The notes under the pieces: generated by a model
Database searches by the model: none
Told to the model about the DNA's origin: nothing
What the model saw: the letters and a program-made list of their open reading frames with translations, nothing else
Shown: positions 1-8,167 of the stretch, piece after piece
Numbering within the stretch: position 1 is the first letter of the stretch
Layout: each line of letters begins with the position of its first letter
Position numbers and translations under genes: made by a program
Source: Promethearchaeota archaeon
GTDB lineage: Archaea > Asgardarchaeota > Lokiarchaeia > Sigyniarchaeales > SOKP01
Direction: 5' to 3'
DNA: 64,000 nucleotides
NCBI GenBank assembly: GCA_048938855.1
Contig: JBHLLT010000002.1
Span: 128,001-192,000 of the forward strand

Positions 1-113
1 TCAATACTCTTGGTTTTAGGATTAAATGGTTTTAATTGAACAATGCTTCCTTCTCTATGCATTTTCTTTAATCCTGCAAAATCCCGAGAAATCCGACTAC
101 TTCTTATACTCAT
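1..113 (-). CDS. N-terminal fragment of a protein running off the window edge; possibly an E2 (ubiquitin-conjugating enzyme)
   Basis: Not in the ORF track. ATG at 113 reads MSIRSSRISRDFAGLKKMHREGSIVQLKPFNPKTKSI with no stop before the edge. It resembles the E2 N-terminal helix (RLxxEhxxL) and lies directly downstream of the E1 on the same strand. The catalytic Cys is not visible. Confidence 0.4.
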   Translation of the reverse strand, partial: MSIRSSRISRDFAGLKKMHREGSIVQLKPFNPKTKSI

Positions 114-1533: not shown

Positions 1534-1866
1534 TTACCCTGCTGTACTAGCAGGAATTAATAGAATATCGTCGCCATCATTAACATTATAATCTCTTAAA
1601 ACGCTGTTTTCATCCATGGTAACACCACCAGAAGATAAATGAAAGTCATTAGGATCAAGACCATATAAATTTCCTAATGTCTGCTTGATATCACTTACAT
1701 GATTGCTGTCATTCACCGTTAATTTTTCTTTTTTTTCACCAGGACCAATGGTAGACATAAAGTATAATGTTAGTTTCTTTCCACTTGAGGGGGTTTTAGA
1801 GGCAGGAGTTTTAGATTTCATTGGTTCTTCTCCGCCTAAATCTTCATCAAATTCATCAAAACTCAT
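1534..1866 (-). CDS. Ubiquitin-like protein 1 (acidic N-terminal extension, C-terminus ...ASTAG)
   Basis: Beta-grasp pattern DIK..L...YGLDP..FHL..GG..M.....LRDYNV.DGDDILLIP; adjacent to the E1. Confidence 0.88.
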   Translation of the reverse strand: MSFDEFDEDLGGEEPMKSKTPASKTPSSGKKLTLYFMSTIGPGEKKEKLTVNDSNHVSDIKQTLGNLYGLDPNDFHLSSGGVTMDENSVLRDYNVNDGDDILLIPASTAG

Positions 1867-2128
1867 TCATATCACTTCAAATTTTTTTTATTTTTTGATT
1901 TTAATTTTTTAAATTTAATAAAATGGCATTAAAAAGGTATAATAAAACCCTTTGGAATAATTTTGAAGTTTTAAAGATCTAATTAGAAATTACTTAGAGA
2001 AGAAAAGGATCTTAAAGAAATCATATTATATATTGTATGAATGCCTATCAAAATATATAAGACACATAATATTGTTATAGAGAGACTTTTTAAATATAAA
2101 AAACTTCACATATTTCAAGTATCGACTC

Positions 2129-2885: not shown

Positions 2886-3680
2886 ATGAAAAAGAATTAT
2901 AGAATTTTAGTGATTATTGCTCTTTACACCGTATGTATATTATTCTATGCATTATTTTTCCTATTTCATATACAAAGTGTTCCTATATTTCTTTTTCTAA
3001 CTATCGGTAGTGTTGCTGTATTATCAACTGGGACAATATATACGGTTATACAATCTAAGAGCAGTCAAGACAAAATATTCAAAGAAAAAAAATCCTTTGT
3101 AAAACAAAAATCAATTCAAACTAAACCGATCGATATTATAGAAGATTATATAGAAGCGATGCCTTCAATAGAAACTTATATCGAATCAGAAGAAACTTGC
3201 AAGGACATGCCCATAATGGATAAATTTGTCTTTTCAATCTTCAGTAAAGAAGAATTAGAAAATATAAGCTTATTAGATTTACCCAAAATGGAAAAAATAC
3301 AGTTTATTAGGGAACTACTTTATTACGACCATAATGAGAGAAATGGATTAATCGAAAATATGTTGAAAAACAAGGATGAAATTGAAGGAATAATAAATTA
3401 TACCCCGCCTACAAATCCAATTGAATTGGAAGATCAGATCCGCCTTTATGTAAGATCTTTACTCGAGCCAGGTGAGAAAACAAAAATAATTATTGTTGAT
3501 ACTTCAGATTTCATCATTATTATCAAGGAAAAAATTGCAGTATTATTTGATTATAATCTAGAAGATTTTCTTTTATCTAGTGGAGGAATTTTGTTAAATG
3601 ATAACTTACTAATAAAAGATTATGAAATCGATGATGATGATGAAATTGCCCTAATTCCCGCAAGGAAGGCAAAAAAATAA
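2886..3680 (+). CDS. Membrane-anchored protein with a C-terminal ubiquitin-like domain (no terminal Gly)
   Basis: Two N-terminal hydrophobic helices. The C-terminal ~80 aa (PGEKTK...LSSGG...DY.I.D.DEI.LIPA) are paralogous to the flanking Ubls. Ends RKAKK. Confidence 0.82.
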   Translation: MKKNYRILVIIALYTVCILFYALFFLFHIQSVPIFLFLTIGSVAVLSTGTIYTVIQSKSSQDKIFKEKKSFVKQKSIQTKPIDIIEDYIEAMPSIETYIESEETCKDMPIMDKFVFSIFSKEELENISLLDLPKMEKIQFIRELLYYDHNERNGLIENMLKNKDEIEGIINYTPPTNPIELEDQIRLYVRSLLEPGEKTKIIIVDTSDFIIIIKEKIAVLFDYNLEDFLLSSGGILLNDNLLIKDYEIDDDDEIALIPARKAKK

Positions 3681-3696
3681 TATAGACCCCAAATAC

Positions 3697-4122
3697 TTAA
3701 CCAGCAACACTTGCTGGAATTAAAAGTATGTCATCCCCATCAGAAACATTGTAATGTGATAATGGATTAGTTTCCTCCATAGTTACACCACCTGATGATA
3801 AATAAAAGTCAGCAGGATCTAAGCCAAATAAATTCGCCACAGTTTCTTTTATGTCTCCAACAAGGTATCCATCATTAACAGTTAATTTTTGCTTTTTCTC
3901 TCCAGGACCTATAGTGGACATAAAAAATACTGAAATCTTCTTCCCTTCCCTAATACTTTGAACAGTTGGAACCTTAGATTCAACTACTTCTTCTGGAGTC
4001 TTTACAACTGGCTCCTCTCCTTCATTATCAAATCCTTCATCTAGATCTTCATCTAGATCTTCCAAATCTTCATCGAACTCTTGTTCATCAAACTCATCAT
4101 CAAATTCCTCATCAAAATCCAT
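3697..4122 (-). CDS. Ubiquitin-like protein 2 (long D/E-rich N-terminal extension, C-terminus ...ASVAG)
   Basis: Close paralogue of 1534..1866 (FMSTIGPGEKK.KLTVND...GLDP.DF.LSSGGVTM). Confidence 0.88.
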   Translation of the reverse strand: MDFDEEFDDEFDEQEFDEDLEDLDEDLDEGFDNEGEEPVVKTPEEVVESKVPTVQSIREGKKISVFFMSTIGPGEKKQKLTVNDGYLVGDIKETVANLFGLDPADFYLSSGGVTMEETNPLSHYNVSDGDDILLIPASVAG

Positions 4123-4303: not shown

Positions 4304-5461
4304 ATGAACGATGAACAAATTCCTAAATATCAAATTCGGGAAAAGACTCCAGATGAGGAATTAGAAAATATCCCCGAAAAAAAATTAATAAAAAAGTTAA
4401 AAAAGGAACGAATCAAATTAGATAAAGAAAAAAGTGAATGGGAAAAAGTTATTCACCAAATTCAGGATTACAAAGATAGTGTTGAAGATTTAGAAAAGAA
4501 AAGAAAAGAAAAAGAACTCAAAATAAAGTTTCTTCTAGATCAAAGAGAAAACTTGAAAGAGGAATTAGCGACAACTAATAATCTAATAGAACAACAGAAA
4601 AATGAATTAGCTTCCAAAGAAAGGCAATTTAGAGAAAAGATAAGGAATAAGAATGAAGAATTGAATCGCAAAAATGCTGAATTAGAACAATTTCAAGACA
4701 GATTAGATAAATTAAGAGATGATATCGCAAATCAAAAAAAGAATTTAGAATGGGAAAAAGAGAGAACAGAAAAACGAATAAAGGAAATTAAAACAAAAAT
4801 TCCAGGTATGGAAAGAAGAGAAAGCGCTTTAGAAAGAACGATTAATGATTTAGAAAATAAGTTACATGAATTAAAAAGTGAGATAAATAATTTACAGAGA
4901 GAAAGAGACAATCTAGATAGAGAAATCAATAACTTAAAGAGAGAAATTAAAGATGAGAAAAATCGATTTTCTGATGAAAAGCAAAAACTTAAAGAAGAAC
5001 GAGAAAAAACTCGCTATAAAAAGCAAGATTTAGACCTACGGACTCGTGAACTTGATAAAAAAAAGGTCGATCTTAAAAAATATAGAGATAAAGCAGAAAA
5101 TGATGTAAATAATTTAGATAAAAGAAGAAGGCGAGAAGAAGCAAGATTAAAAGAATTGGAAAAAAAAATTCCAGCAGCGGAAAGTAAGTATAATTCATTA
5201 AATCGCAAAATTCCAAATTTAGAGGAAAAATTTAATAGATTAAATAATGAATATAGTAAATTGGAAAAAGAAAAAACAAACCTAGAAAGGGAAAAAAGTT
5301 TAATAAAACGCGAAAGAGACAAACTAGAAAAAGATAAACAAAGATTTCTAGATGAAAAAAGAGAATTTGAAAGAGAATTGAGACGAATTAAATCAAAAAC
5401 ACCTTCAATTAAGACAAAAACGCCTTCTAATATCAAAACTAAAACTCCTTCAAAATATTAA
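4304..5461 (+). CDS. Long coiled-coil protein with a C-terminal KTP repeat tail
   Basis: Heptad K/E/R/L-rich sequence over ~330 aa with no ATPase motif; ends IKSKTPS-IKTKTPSN-IKTKTPSKY. Confidence 0.8.
   Translation: MNDEQIPKYQIREKTPDEELENIPEKKLIKKLKKERIKLDKEKSEWEKVIHQIQDYKDSVEDLEKKRKEKELKIKFLLDQRENLKEELATTNNLIEQQKNELASKERQFREKIRNKNEELNRKNAELEQFQDRLDKLRDDIANQKKNLEWEKERTEKRIKEIKTKIPGMERRESALERTINDLENKLHELKSEINNLQRERDNLDREINNLKREIKDEKNRFSDEKQKLKEEREKTRYKKQDLDLRTRELDKKKVDLKKYRDKAENDVNNLDKRRRREEARLKELEKKIPAAESKYNSLNRKIPNLEEKFNRLNNEYSKLEKEKTNLEREKSLIKRERDKLEKDKQRFLDEKREFERELRRIKSKTPSIKTKTPSNIKTKTPSKY
5387..5461 (+). repeat. Three degenerate coding repeats (IKxKTPS)
   Basis: ATTAAATCAAAAACACCTTCA / ATTAAGACAAAAACGCCTTCT / ATCAAAACTAAAACTCCTTCA; divergence is mostly synonymous. 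Confidence 0.75.
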
Positions 5462-5472
5462 TCACTAATTTT

Positions 5473-6522
5473 GTGAATTTCATGAGGATTGCTAAAGCAA
5501 TTGAAGGGGATTATATAGAAACGATAGATGATAACTTATTTTTTGATGTGAAAGGAGTACTCCATCCAAATGATTATATCATTAGCTTTATACGATTTTT
5601 TCCACATCCAGATGGCGAAAGAAAAAGAAAAGGGACAAACTATAAAAAGCTTTATAATCTAAAGGAAAGATATGAATTTTTAAAGAAAAACTTTCCTAAA
5701 TATCTTTTTTATTCTGATGAACTAGATTTAGAGATTCAAGGAGTTAAAAAAGATGAAATTAAGAAAATATATACTCCAAGACATTTCTTTAAATATTTAA
5801 ACAAAAAGAAATCATTATCCCCCAGTGAAAAATATTCTATGGACTTATGCGAATTATTTGTTACAGAAGGAGAGATTTCTGAAAATTCAATTGGAATCAC
5901 GGGATCTATTATGGTTGGGCTAAATACTGAATATTCTGATATTGATCTAATAATATATGGTACAGAAACAAGTATTAAATTCCAAGAGAACTTGAGTAAA
6001 ATATTCAAAAAATCAAATAATTGTCGGAAGTATACTTTAGATGAGTATAAATCACATTACACTTGGAGATTTGGTGGATCGGATATTTTATTTAAAGATT
6101 TTCTGAAAAGTGAACAAAGAAAGCAACATCAAGGGAAATTTATGGATCATGATTTTTTTATTAGGTATATCAGAAGCCCCAATGATTGGAAAGGCAGTTT
6201 TTATGATTATAAATACCAAAATCTTGGTAGAATCAAACTCAAAGCAGAGATTATCGATTCTAAAAATGCTATCTTTACACCATGTTCATATAAAATAAAA
6301 CCCCTAAAAATTTTTGAAAGTAATATTGAATTAGAAAAGTTAAATATGAGAGATATAAATGAAATTAATTCATTCCGAGGCCGCTTTTGTGAGCAAGCAA
6401 AAACAGGAGAAATTGTTTTTGCAGAAGGTAAATTAGAAAAAGTCATTTTTAAAAATAATATTGAATATTATCGAATATTATTAACTGATCAAACAAAAGA
6501 TAAATTACTTATTTTGAATTGA
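5473..6522 (+). CDS. Archaeal predicted nucleotidyltransferase (Pol-beta superfamily)
   Basis: GITGS...SDIDL motif; C-terminal OB-like segment (FTPC.Y...SFRGRFCEQA..GE...A.GKLE). Confidence 0.75.
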   Translation: MNFMRIAKAIEGDYIETIDDNLFFDVKGVLHPNDYIISFIRFFPHPDGERKRKGTNYKKLYNLKERYEFLKKNFPKYLFYSDELDLEIQGVKKDEIKKIYTPRHFFKYLNKKKSLSPSEKYSMDLCELFVTEGEISENSIGITGSIMVGLNTEYSDIDLIIYGTETSIKFQENLSKIFKKSNNCRKYTLDEYKSHYTWRFGGSDILFKDFLKSEQRKQHQGKFMDHDFFIRYIRSPNDWKGSFYDYKYQNLGRIKLKAEIIDSKNAIFTPCSYKIKPLKIFESNIELEKLNMRDINEINSFRGRFCEQAKTGEIVFAEGKLEKVIFKNNIEYYRILLTDQTKDKLLILN

Positions 6523-6557
6523 ATCCAAATAATTAATGCTTTATTAAAATCTTTTTA

Positions 6558-7892
6558 TTGAAGTATTGTCTTTTATTACTCATGGATACTTTTAATGCCG
6601 ATCTCCATATTCATAGTCCACATTCAATCGCTGTATCGAAATCGCTGAATTTGGATACGATGATAGAGACCTGTAAGAAAAAGGGGCTCAATATACTTGG
6701 AACAGGGGATATTTTACAACCAGAATGGTTTAAATACATGAAAAGTAATTTAGAAAAGCAAATAGATGGATCCTTTCTATATAATGACGTTTTTTTTATC
6801 CTTCAGACAGAAATAGAAGATCTGGAAAGTATTCATCATGTAGTTTTATTTCCTGATTTTAATTCTGTGGTTGAAATTCAGAATAAATTGAAACCCTATT
6901 CTAAAAATATTTTAGATGAATGGGGCGGAAGACCTAGAGTCAACTTATCTCCTTCCGCTTTAGTAGAAATAATAACTGATTCTGGGGGGATAGTAGGCCC
7001 TGCCCATGCTTTTACTCCATTTAAAGCAATATTTCGACAAGGAAAGTTTGAATCTCTTGAAGATTGCTATAAAGGGGCATCAAAAAAAATTAACTTTATT
7101 GAATTAGGCCTTTCTGCTAATACTGATTTAGCAGATCGGCTAGAATCTCTGAAAAATGTTTCCTTTCTAAGTAATAGTGATGCCCATTCGCAAGATCCAC
7201 GCTCACTTGGAAGAGAATTTAACAGATTCGAAATTGATAATCCTTCTTTTGATGAAATTTTATTAGCTTTGCAGAGAAAAAATAGGAGAAAGATATCTCT
7301 GAACGTGGGTCTACACCCTAAACTCGGTAAATATTATAATATGTTTTGTAATAAATGTCGGAGAAGGATATTATTTAAGAAAGTGAAAAAAGAAGTGAAT
7401 GCCCTTTTTAATCAATATTCTATTACTAAAAATTTTGTCATTTACTCCTCTATTGATCCTATTTCTTCAAGATTAGATTATTTAGACCAAGTTTCTAAAA
7501 ATAAGATGATCTGTCCAGCATGTAAAGAGCAATCTAACAAAAAAGCTAAGATAAAATTAGGAGTAAGTGAAAGAATTGAAAAAATTTCTACATTTCTTGA
7601 ACCTAATCATCCAGATCATAGACCTCCATATATTAATGCTATACCCTTAATTGATATAATTCGTGCTGTGAAAGGAATTAAAAGTACAAATAGTAAAACG
7701 GTCTTAAATGATTACAACAGAATAATTAAAGAACTTGGAACTGAATTTGAAATATTAATCGATACTCCTATTACTAAAATTAAGAATTTTAATAAAAATA
7801 TATCTTCTGTCATAAGTGCTTTTAGAAATAATGAAGTAGAGTACACTCCTGGAGGAGGAGGTACATATGGCCAAATAAAGTTTGATATCTAA
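6558..7892 (+). CDS. PHP-domain Zn-ribbon protein, endonuclease Q / TIGR00375-like
   Basis: ADLHIHS, GTGD, GPAHAFTP, ELGLS, SNSDAHS, LGRE, GKYY..C..C, CPAC, PGGGG.YG. Likely start is the ATG near 6582. Confidence 0.85.
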   Translation: MKYCLLLLMDTFNADLHIHSPHSIAVSKSLNLDTMIETCKKKGLNILGTGDILQPEWFKYMKSNLEKQIDGSFLYNDVFFILQTEIEDLESIHHVVLFPDFNSVVEIQNKLKPYSKNILDEWGGRPRVNLSPSALVEIITDSGGIVGPAHAFTPFKAIFRQGKFESLEDCYKGASKKINFIELGLSANTDLADRLESLKNVSFLSNSDAHSQDPRSLGREFNRFEIDNPSFDEILLALQRKNRRKISLNVGLHPKLGKYYNMFCNKCRRRILFKKVKKEVNALFNQYSITKNFVIYSSIDPISSRLDYLDQVSKNKMICPACKEQSNKKAKIKLGVSERIEKISTFLEPNHPDHRPPYINAIPLIDIIRAVKGIKSTNSKTVLNDYNRIIKELGTEFEILIDTPITKIKNFNKNISSVISAFRNNEVEYTPGGGGTYGQIKFDI

Positions 7893-7927
7893 CTGAGATT
7901 TAATTTGTTTAGAGCTAGATATAATCA

Positions 7928-8167
7928 TTAAATATTAAATTCTAAATCTAGTTTTATTAGATCTCCACATGTATTGCAGGTGATAAATTCGAAAACCTTT
8001 ACTGCTACGGTTAATAATTCAAGATCTTTTCGGGGAAATTGATTTCTAAATTTCTTTTTGTAACCACAATTTGGGCAGCTGAGTATCGCTCTTACTTGAA
8101 TTAATTCGCTTTCTTTTGAAGCGCCAATAGCTTTTTCGCTACTGTTTTTAGTATTCTCAATTTCCAA
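7928..8167 (-). CDS. Small Zn-ribbon protein
   Basis: CPNC...CNTC. Confidence 0.7.
   Translation of the reverse strand: MEIENTKNSSEKAIGASKESELIQVRAILSCPNCGYKKKFRNQFPRKDLELLTVAVKVFEFITCNTCGDLIKLDLEFNI

Follow-up and report, generated by a model that had tools for sequence, protein, structure and literature searches.

We analysed a 64,000-nucleotide stretch of the genome of a Promethearchaeota archaeon (positions 128,001 to 192,000 of contig JBHLLT010000002.1, assembly GCA_048938855.1; hereafter the window), which sits within a 461-kb contig of a 3.95-Mb genome and is AT-rich, with a G+C content of about 29%. The start of the window carries a locus for ubiquitin-like proteins (Ubls) and their enzymes. 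Our subject is one gene of this locus, TM-Ubl, whose product consists of a transmembrane (TM) hairpin, a helical region that we call domain X, and a Ubl domain without a C-terminal Gly. Upstream on the same strand lies the gene for a tandem winged-helix protein, wHTH. On balance, we lean towards a reading in which TM-Ubl is a membrane dock, probably an anti-factor, for the regulator wHTH, with the non-conjugatable Ubl domain as its cytoplasmic input.

A tethered ubiquitin fold in a ubiquitin-like locus

On the minus strand, an operon begins with the free modifier Ubl1 and runs through genes for an E1-like enzyme and an E2 (Table 1). Outside the window edge, the remainder of the E2 gene is followed by genes for a JAMM protein and for a polytopic membrane protein of 401 amino acids (aa) with a Cys-rich finger. 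Pfam assigns the E2 to UQ_con (E 5e-25) and the JAMM protein to JAB (E 5e-15), while no Pfam match, RING included, was found for the membrane finger protein. The wHTH and TM-Ubl genes lie on the plus strand, with 79 nt between the stop of the first and the start of the second, and the stop of TM-Ubl is 16 nt from that of a second free modifier, Ubl2. This agrees with an earlier note on this DNA, which had placed TM-Ubl downstream of the wHTH gene and convergent with Ubl2.

Table 1. Coordinates in the window of the features of the TM-Ubl locus
Feature	Position	Strand	Basis
E2 (UQ_con), N-terminal part; rest of E2 beyond the window edge	1..113	-	
E1-like enzyme, ThiF family, 410 aa	217..1449	-	Pfam ThiF, E 9e-61
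Free modifier Ubl1, 110 aa, C-terminal TAG; heads the Ubl1-E1-E2-JAMM-membrane finger operon	1534..1866	-	
Divergent Ubl1/wHTH intergenic region, 262 bp, candidate regulatory region	1867..2128	.	20-spacer alignment
Tandem winged-helix protein wHTH, 225 aa	2129..2806	+	Pfam HTH_5, PDB sequence search
TM-Ubl gene	2886..3680	+	Open reading frame, 264 aa plus stop
Transmembrane hairpin	2904..3050	+	Kyte-Doolittle scan, charge counts over 122 members, AlphaFold2 helices
Domain X, aa ~75-165, helical, predicted cytoplasmic, predicted wHTH dock	3108..3380	+	Profile matches, co-fold
Ubiquitin-fold (beta-grasp) domain, aa ~181-259	3426..3662	+	Pfam PF00240, AlphaFold2, Foldseek
Basic tail RKAKK, replacing the (T/V)AG end of the free Ubls	3663..3677	+	Sequence, family tails
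Free modifier Ubl2, 141 aa, acidic extension at the N-terminus, C-terminal VAG; convergent with TM-Ubl	3697..4122	-	

The earlier note had proposed two TM helices and membrane tethering, and both are borne out. A Kyte-Doolittle scan of TM-Ubl finds hydrophobic segments at aa 7-27 (TM1) and aa 32-55 (TM2), and its AlphaFold2 (AF2) model has helices at aa 3-26 and 32-58. The loop between TM1 and TM2 has only 4 residues, H/R-I-Q-S/N. TM1 is preceded by the N-terminal MKKNYR, and TM2 runs on into a Lys-rich stretch. Counted in 122 family members, Lys plus Arg residues average 2.6 ahead of TM1 and 4.9 in the first 20 residues beyond TM2. Because of these counts and the positive-inside rule, the N- and C-terminus are both predicted to be cytoplasmic (N-in/C-in). 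Topology was a point that the earlier note had singled out for checking; the charge counts, together with the architecture of the domain X paralogues described below, lead to the prediction that the Ubl domain is on the cytoplasmic side. TM2 is unusually conserved and keeps its polar residues, with S42, Y52 and T53 invariant.

The C-terminal part of TM-Ubl is a true ubiquitin fold and a paralogue of the locus's own free Ubls, as the earlier note had claimed from shared motifs. Pfam ubiquitin (PF00240) matches aa 189-256 with an E-value of 9.2e-6 and 25.8 bits, marginally over the cut-off of 25.4, and a precomputed PF00240 match is present on 50 of 120 listed homologues. AF2 models this part with a confidence (pLDDT) of 82-91. 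In a Foldseek search the model matched ubiquitin, NEDD8, ISG15 and Caldiarchaeum ubiquitin. Against ubiquitin chains the probability was 1.00 and the TM-score by target length was 0.85-0.92, at a root-mean-square deviation (rmsd) of 1.0-1.6 Å over 74-79 residues; across all matched single-domain chains it was 0.77-0.92, at the same rmsd of 1.0-1.6 Å, and for Caldiarchaeum ubiquitin (6fno_D) it was 0.77, at 1.3 Å. BLASTP aligned TM-Ubl with Ubl1 at 36% identity (E 2e-19) and with Ubl2 at 32% identity (E 6e-15), and when all three are aligned, the motifs PGEK, LSSGG and D.D.I.LIPA show no variation. As in the free Ubls, PGEK forms the beta1-beta2 loop, LSSGG lies in the beta3-beta4 region and LIP in beta5; across the TM-Ubl family the third of these elements reads LIP(A/S). 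Most partners of ubiquitin use its Leu8/Ile44/Val70 patch, to which we take the PGEK, LSSGG and LIP elements to correspond, in a mapping made by topology only. A UFM1-type system was also considered and ruled out, as the E2 is a canonical UQ_con protein and the Ubl matches ubiquitin; the parallel to UFMylation drawn in the earlier note is therefore unsupported.

We next compared C-terminal ends. TM-Ubl ends in RKAKK, where Ubl1 ends in TAG and Ubl2 in VAG. Among 119 family segments that follow the (L/I/V)IP strand, 110 are without Gly, one ends in Gly, and none contains AG. A conjugatable modifier carries a C-terminal Gly, within GG or, at this locus, AG, either exposed or before a short propeptide, and TM-Ubl has neither form. 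The orthologous free Ubls of 20 loci (L006-L025) end at AG, as in many of the genomes, or at AG plus 2-7 residues, for example AGYLV, AGKLI and AGKCIC, and such ends would fit modifiers that are matured by the operon's JAMM protease to a single-Gly end. Because nearly all family tails are Gly-less while the free Ubls and other Ubl fusions keep AG, the missing Gly is specific to TM-Ubl and maintained. Judging from these tails, the Ubl domain of TM-Ubl cannot be activated or conjugated, and the earlier note was right about its non-conjugatable end. There is also no Cys in the last 5 residues of TM-Ubl, as a CaaX box would require, and none was seen in 59 distinct C-termini of the family.

The other Ubl fusions occur in sister genera, and all end in AG (L032 2583-3506(+); L030 3619-4401(-); L031 6703-7470(+) and 7765-8658(+); L033 7770-8660(+)). 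One of the sister-genus fusions has a Roadblock/LC7-like N-terminus, a weak match that stays below the Pfam cut-off (E 0.004), and in several of them a Cys-pair (zinc-ribbon) motif and a coiled coil stand ahead of the Ubl, by eye.

TM-Ubl is, as its homologues indicate, a member of a conserved Lokiarchaeial family. Nearly all of the 394 homologues are 260-269 aa long and 57-79% identical to it over their full length, more distant ones go down to 38% identity, and the conservation extends over hairpin, domain X and Ubl alike. At 38-42% identity, relatives still show the three-gene arrangement, with wHTH adjoining. We surveyed 251 Asgard genomes, in which genera are anonymised as g1-g8 and one family as f1, and found full-length TM-Ubl confined to f1. 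In genus g1 it was present, full length or in pieces, in 16 of 18 genomes; the remaining two, which are incomplete, gave a partial Ubl or a domain-X match only. It was also present in 19 of 21 g4 genomes and in one g6 genome. Free Ubls of this type have a wider distribution: the profile of the whole protein matched 97 of the 251 genomes, outside f1 mostly through its Ubl part.

A domain shared with surface proteins and its predicted winged-helix partner

The earlier note had described the middle of TM-Ubl as a helical linker. In a profile-free search, however, aa ~75-165 alone matched the extreme C-termini of large surface proteins with beta-helix/NosD, LamG, Ig or WD40 domains, and this region is instead a discrete conserved domain that other proteins also carry. 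In the surface proteins it is preceded by a TM helix and frequently by a Cys/His zinc finger too. From 34 aligned segments we defined domain X as a helical domain of ~85 aa with a core of approximately F..(F/L)S.EEL.KIDLL.LS..EK..FI.E.L.L...ER..LI..ML. A hidden Markov model (HMM) of the domain found three proteins in the source genome; besides TM-Ubl these are a protein of 961 aa, in which the domain occurs twice, and one of 444 aa. TM-Ubl itself was matched by hmmsearch with an E-value of 1.1e-35 over aa 78-170 of a stop-to-stop frame with 5 extra N-terminal residues, which corresponds to aa ~73-165 of the protein, and with 2e-35 in the genome search. The 961-aa and 444-aa proteins have a type I layout, in which a signal-like segment and an ectodomain rich in N-x-S/T are followed by one TM segment, a basic stretch and a terminal domain X. 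Because domain X forms the C-terminal end after the TM segment of type I surface proteins, it is predicted to be cytoplasmic independently of TM-Ubl. Of 54 f1 genomes, 45 have a match to the domain at E<=1e-6, and the 196 other Asgard genomes gave no match at this threshold.

Comparisons of sequence and of predicted structure point to domain X being a new domain, with no known family found. It had no match in Pfam, its profile had no matches among PDB sequences at E<=10, and a Foldseek search of the PDB with its fold gave no match, the best E-value being 1.9. A wide VIA-align search returned only generic three-helix bundles with Z about 5, which is noise level for helical models, and the C-terminal half of the domain is itself a generic three-helix bundle. 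A shape search of the ESM Atlas returned the domain's own family, another Promethearchaeota cluster and then weak ParB-HTH-like rows, and a feature search of the Atlas gave no usable match. We also considered a UBA/CUE-like ubiquitin-binding role for domain X and found no evidence to support it. In many of the surface-protein tails (P0160, P0167, P0168 and P0171-P0174) a zinc finger of the form C-x2-H...C-x2-C...C-x2-C...C-x2-C precedes domain X; by eye, it resembles in style the finger of the operon's membrane protein.

We then asked what accompanies domain X in these genomes. The wHTH protein matches Pfam HTH_5 in its C-terminal part (E 6.7e-8) and ArsR-family proteins among PDB sequences; its C-terminal winged helix is ArsR/TrmB-like and, from these matches, the protein is likely a DNA binder. 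Its family is present in multiple copies in f1 genomes. In each of the 29 genomes for which both coordinates are listed, and in all 20 loci that we fetched, TM-Ubl has the wHTH gene as its immediate upstream neighbour. The pairing extends to other carriers of domain X: in the source genome, the other two domain-X genes are each followed by a wHTH paralogue, which starts 42 bp beyond the stop in one case and 59 bp in the other. These two modules lie on contig C6 (99440-103013(-)) and contig C54 (43574-45594(+)) of genome G000. Across f1, at least 53 of the 68 listed domain-X genes other than TM-Ubl directly adjoin a wHTH paralogue on the same strand, as counted by cross-matching coordinates between the matches listed by two genome searches; most of the unpaired genes are at contig edges, or are perhaps paired with wHTH matches outside the listing. 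Some f1 genomes contain about a dozen such pairs. The same pairing is found on three metagenomic contigs, whose upstream genes encode proteins 38-41% (in one case 30%) identical to the wHTH of the window. By gene order and homology, domain X and wHTH make up a lineage-specific, expanded two-gene module, in which a membrane protein with a predicted cytoplasmic domain X is encoded with a cognate wHTH of ~225 aa. Among the surveyed genomes, the module was found in family f1 only.

Two further arrangements were seen in the source genome. Distant wHTH paralogues are fused to N-terminal TM segments (contig C66, 17381-18388(+); C34, 316619-317869(-); C60, 54703-55422(+)), and would therefore be membrane-bound winged-helix proteins. 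Elsewhere on contig C34 (375748-378296(+)) there is a protein of 549 aa with a zinc-ribbon-like motif in its N-terminal part, whose C-terminal repeats, EEQVKYIEAIVNL and EEQVRFVQFLEENA, are like the core of domain X. Its gene is followed after 3 bp by that of a 298-aa wHTH paralogue, and the pair is perhaps a soluble or divergent version of the module.

The complex of wHTH with domain X was modelled by co-folding from two custom-built alignments, of 24 rows for wHTH and 34 rows for domain X. Three runs gave interface scores (ipSAE) of 0.74, 0.75 and 0.76, against 0.05 for the best of three controls; the pLDDT of the partner was 78-80, and at least 90% of the contacts agreed between runs. The mark used is reached by 58 of 80 solved complexes and by 2 of 110 mismatched pairs, rates that are only a rough guide here, where the alignments are custom-built. 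Because there is no similar solved complex for domain X, recall of a known structure is unlikely. In the model, wHTH residues 15-31, 47-68 and 104-117 meet TM-Ubl aa 81-163. On the wHTH side, the predicted interface is made up of the first winged helix and a region of the second that aligns with the recognition helices of HTH proteins. The tightest predicted contacts are between invariant residues, F25, S26 and G65 of wHTH and F116 of TM-Ubl, and invariant residues are enriched in the wHTH interface (14 of 37, against 28 of 188; Fisher p = 0.002). The modelling thus supports, but does not show, that domain X binds wHTH.

The conserved locus and the proposed role of TM-Ubl

The layout of the locus is itself conserved. 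The 20 fetched loci are of genera g1 and g4, and 18 of them have one fixed gene order, finger-JAMM-E2-E1-Ubl1, then divergent wHTH and TM-Ubl, then convergent Ubl2; genes for coiled-coil, nucleotidyltransferase, PHP, Zn-ribbon and FtsZ proteins lie beyond Ubl2 in the same loci. TM-Ubl always shares its locus with AG-ending Ubls and the E1 and E2, a co-occurrence on which the earlier note had made its proposal depend. Among individual loci, L002 contains only fragments of the E1 next to the conserved Ubl1/wHTH/TM-Ubl/Ubl2 core, and L005 (CP070805.1) has a fragmented-looking neighbourhood that is uninformative for gene order. In a further locus, of genome G138 (L030, 8740-9296(-)), the E2 is in two open reading frames of 85 and 94 aa, perhaps through a frameshift, a pseudogene or an assembly error. 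In the window, positions 4304-8167 encode a 385-aa coiled-coil protein with a KTP-rich tail and nucleotidyltransferase-like, PHP-domain and small Zn-ribbon proteins, and the order of these genes beside Ubl2 is fixed in nearly all loci.

The spacer between Ubl1 and wHTH contains blocks conserved at 80% or more over the 20 orthologous loci, such as TATTATAAAACC..TTGGAATGATTTTGAA and TATA.TATAAATT..ATGAA, while the proteins of the same loci are only 55-90% identical. These blocks are candidate promoters or operators. A scan of the spacer for inverted repeats gave AT-rich matches only, with no convincing operator or palindrome.

From these observations we propose the following mechanism. The two-helix hairpin would fix TM-Ubl in the membrane with both of its ends in the cytoplasm. 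Domain X would bind the N-terminal winged-helix domains of wHTH and so retain at the membrane what is presumed to be a transcription regulator. In the modelled complex, part of the second recognition helix of wHTH is covered by domain X, as it would be by an anti-sigma factor. The Ubl domain, presumably derived from the modifiers of the locus, keeps their conserved loops without the C-terminal Gly, and because of this combination it should still be recognised by some machinery, yet not be activated. The E1/E2/JAMM/membrane finger machinery, or a receptor of its Ubls, could be what recognises it, and Ubl chains may also be built on the domain, in the way of a ubiquitin degron that cannot be removed. 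Because the paralogous modules vary in their ectodomain while TM-Ubl varies in its cytoplasmic Ubl, the Ubl would be the input domain. Recognition or modification of it would alter the retention of wHTH and feed back on the divergent Ubl operon, the obvious candidate target given the divergent layout and the conserved blocks in the spacer. The sequences and models themselves establish the architecture, the fold, the lack of Gly, the synteny and the pairing of domain X genes with wHTH genes, whereas topology and binding are predictions. That wHTH binds DNA and leaves the membrane, what the Ubl does and which genes are regulated are what we infer here.

Several points weigh against this mechanism. 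The Ubl-E1-E2-JAMM-finger operon is present without wHTH and TM-Ubl in genera g2, g6 and g8, which argues that the pair is a lineage-specific accessory rather than part of the core of the Ubl system. AF2 models domain X by itself with no more than moderate confidence (pLDDT 67), and the domain X side of the predicted interface is not clearly enriched in invariant residues (13 of 39, against 15 of 58). The co-fold score is moreover the model's own confidence, and close paralogues of a true partner can pass as well. Finally, wHTH could be an adaptor rather than a transcription factor.

A wider version of the proposal takes in the whole of family f1. There, the domain X tails of surface receptors would sequester cognate wHTHs as a signalling system, and TM-Ubl would have swapped the ectodomain for a Ubl that is read by the machinery, releasing the factor and autoregulating the operon. 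We give this version a rather low probability.

The strongest rival is that TM-Ubl acts as a membrane adaptor in the manner of MUBs (membrane-tethered ubiquitin folds) or of HERP/Usa1/TMUB1, its Ubl recruiting the E2, the E1, the finger protein or a Ubl-binding ATPase for the modification of membrane proteins, with wHTH secondary. The gene is fixed in a locus with an E1, an E2, a JAMM protein and a multi-TM Cys-rich finger protein, its loops PGEK, LSSGG and LIP(A/S) are common to the free Ubls, and TM2, polar and strongly conserved, is suggestive of a partner inside the membrane. Such an adaptor leaves unexplained, however, why domain X and wHTH are constantly present and why they are paired in at least 53 modules that have no Ubl, and the operon works without TM-Ubl in sister genera. 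We consider it unlikely as the principal role, though it is compatible with docking of wHTH and both could hold. The earlier note had proposed a membrane receptor, decoy or adaptor. Its tethered, Gly-less and, by prediction, cytoplasmic Ubl stands, but no observation here singles out recruitment of the E1, the E2 or ATPases, and it missed the probable docking domain and the wHTH partner; with the middle region paired with the adjacent wHTH, the likely role shifts from a plain adaptor or decoy to a tether for a regulator.

It is less probable again that the wHTHs, instead of being regulators, are winged-helix adaptors comparable to Vps22/Vps25 of ESCRT-II and couple domain X tails to cytoplasmic sorting or remodelling, with TM-Ubl as a Ubl-marked cargo-like or regulatory member. 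This would suit the tandem winged-helix domains of wHTH and the fact that carriers of domain X are mostly surface proteins. In line with it, one study describes Asgard ESCRT-II subunits as tandem winged-helix proteins and links the Asgard ubiquitin and ESCRT systems (PMC9192718). On the other hand, each membrane protein has a wHTH of its own, in as many as ~12 pairs per genome, which looks like signalling specificity rather than a shared adaptor; the best matches of wHTH are DNA binders of the ArsR/TrmB/Lrs14 type rather than Vps25 or Vps22; and the distant wHTH paralogues are TM-fused, as in membrane-bound transcription factors.

TM-Ubl might instead be a decoy, its Gly-less Ubl competing with the free Ubls for the E1, the JAMM protein or receptors of Ubls, so that less conjugation takes place near the membrane; domain X and wHTH would then be irrelevant. 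Conserved Ubl loops without a reactive end are what a decoy would show, but it would need neither the conserved membrane hairpin nor domain X, and a one-to-one inhibitor must match its targets in abundance; we regard this as improbable. That TM-Ubl is a decaying or non-functional copy of a Ubl, whose Gly disappeared once it had fused to a membrane segment, is scarcely credible, as it has the missing Gly and no other point in its favour and is at odds with 394 homologues of near-constant length and 57-79% identity that are conserved in all three parts, with the fixed synteny, and with the three-gene arrangement kept in relatives at 38-42% identity.

Comparison with known systems

To place TM-Ubl among membrane proteins with a ubiquitin fold, we compared it with known families. 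HERP (HERPUD1), Usa1 and TMUB1/2, which belong to endoplasmic-reticulum-associated degradation (ERAD), likewise have a non-conjugated ubiquitin fold at the cytoplasmic face and a TM hairpin, and are encoded or act with a polytopic membrane ligase-like protein and an E2. In HERP, however, the Ubl is N-terminal and the hairpin C-terminal, the reverse of the order in TM-Ubl, and these proteins have neither domain X nor a winged-helix partner. HERP-type proteins act with a polytopic RING ligase; the polytopic finger protein beside TM-Ubl, a conserved part of the locus, gave no RING match in Pfam. A Pfam search found no sequence link between TM-Ubl and HERP, Usa1 or TMUB beyond the ubiquitin fold. 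MUBs are membrane-tethered ubiquitin folds of plants and animals that lack a conjugatable end and bind and regulate E2s (PMC4996978). TM-Ubl is like them in its tethered fold and non-conjugatable end, and differs in its means of attachment, which in MUBs is C-terminal CaaX prenylation and in TM-Ubl an N-terminal TM hairpin, with a tail that has no Cys.

Archaeal ubiquitin operons supply the same context of a modifier, a ThiF-type E1, a UQ_con E2 and a JAMM/Rpn11-like protease; examples are the Ub-E1-E2-RING-Rpn11 operon of Caldiarchaeum subterraneum (PMC5654768, PMC6043591) and the Asgard ubiquitin clusters (PMC9192718). Compared with these, the modifiers of the TM-Ubl locus end in Ala-Gly rather than Gly-Gly, the finger protein is polytopic, and there is an extra insert of wHTH, TM-Ubl and Ubl2. 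Term searches within PMC9192718 turned up no mention of a membrane-anchored Ubl. Likewise, literature searches by term found no paper that links Asgard archaea with TMUB1, HERPUD1 or MUB or describes a membrane-anchored archaeal Ubl, although such searches cannot prove absence.

The pairing of domain X with wHTH has other parallels. Anti-sigma factors with their ECF sigma factors, and BlaR1 with BlaI, are pairs of a membrane protein and a DNA-binding regulator; like the domain X/wHTH module, they combine one-to-one co-encoding, an expanded family and variable sensors. As in the anti-sigma pairs, the interface predicted for TM-Ubl and wHTH covers part of a recognition helix. Among eukaryotes, Spt23/Mga2 and NFE2L1 are membrane-tethered transcription factors that are released via ubiquitin and control ubiquitin or proteasome genes, and by analogy they share with our proposal a link from the ubiquitin system to the release of a regulator. 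The folds and sequences of all these proteins are unrelated to those of TM-Ubl and wHTH.

Because TM-Ubl has no CaaX box, no sequence link to the known membrane Ubls and a different domain order, it appears to lie outside their families. As far as sequence and predicted fold can tell, it belongs to the ubiquitin fold family and to none of the ERAD Ubl, MUB, anti-factor or membrane transcription factor families. The domain X/wHTH module is the more novel element of the two.

Non-conjugated, membrane-fixed ubiquitin folds such as those of HERP, Usa1, TMUB and MUB have so far been treated as eukaryotic devices that bring the ubiquitin machinery to membranes. The presence of TM-Ubl in an Asgard archaeon, inside a full Ubl/E1/E2/JAMM/finger locus, suggests that fixed ubiquitin-fold modules for docking or signalling, in addition to ubiquitin folds as tags, predate eukaryotes. 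The domain X/wHTH pair, which recurs in dozens of receptor-like modules, is a candidate signal-transduction system in a group whose signalling is poorly understood, and it offers a small, directly testable protein-protein interface. Within it, TM-Ubl and wHTH may link the Ubl system to gene control at the membrane. If the wider version of the proposal is true, they would be a prokaryotic counterpart of the ubiquitin-dependent release of Spt23/Mga2 and NFE2L1, in the closest relatives of eukaryotes.

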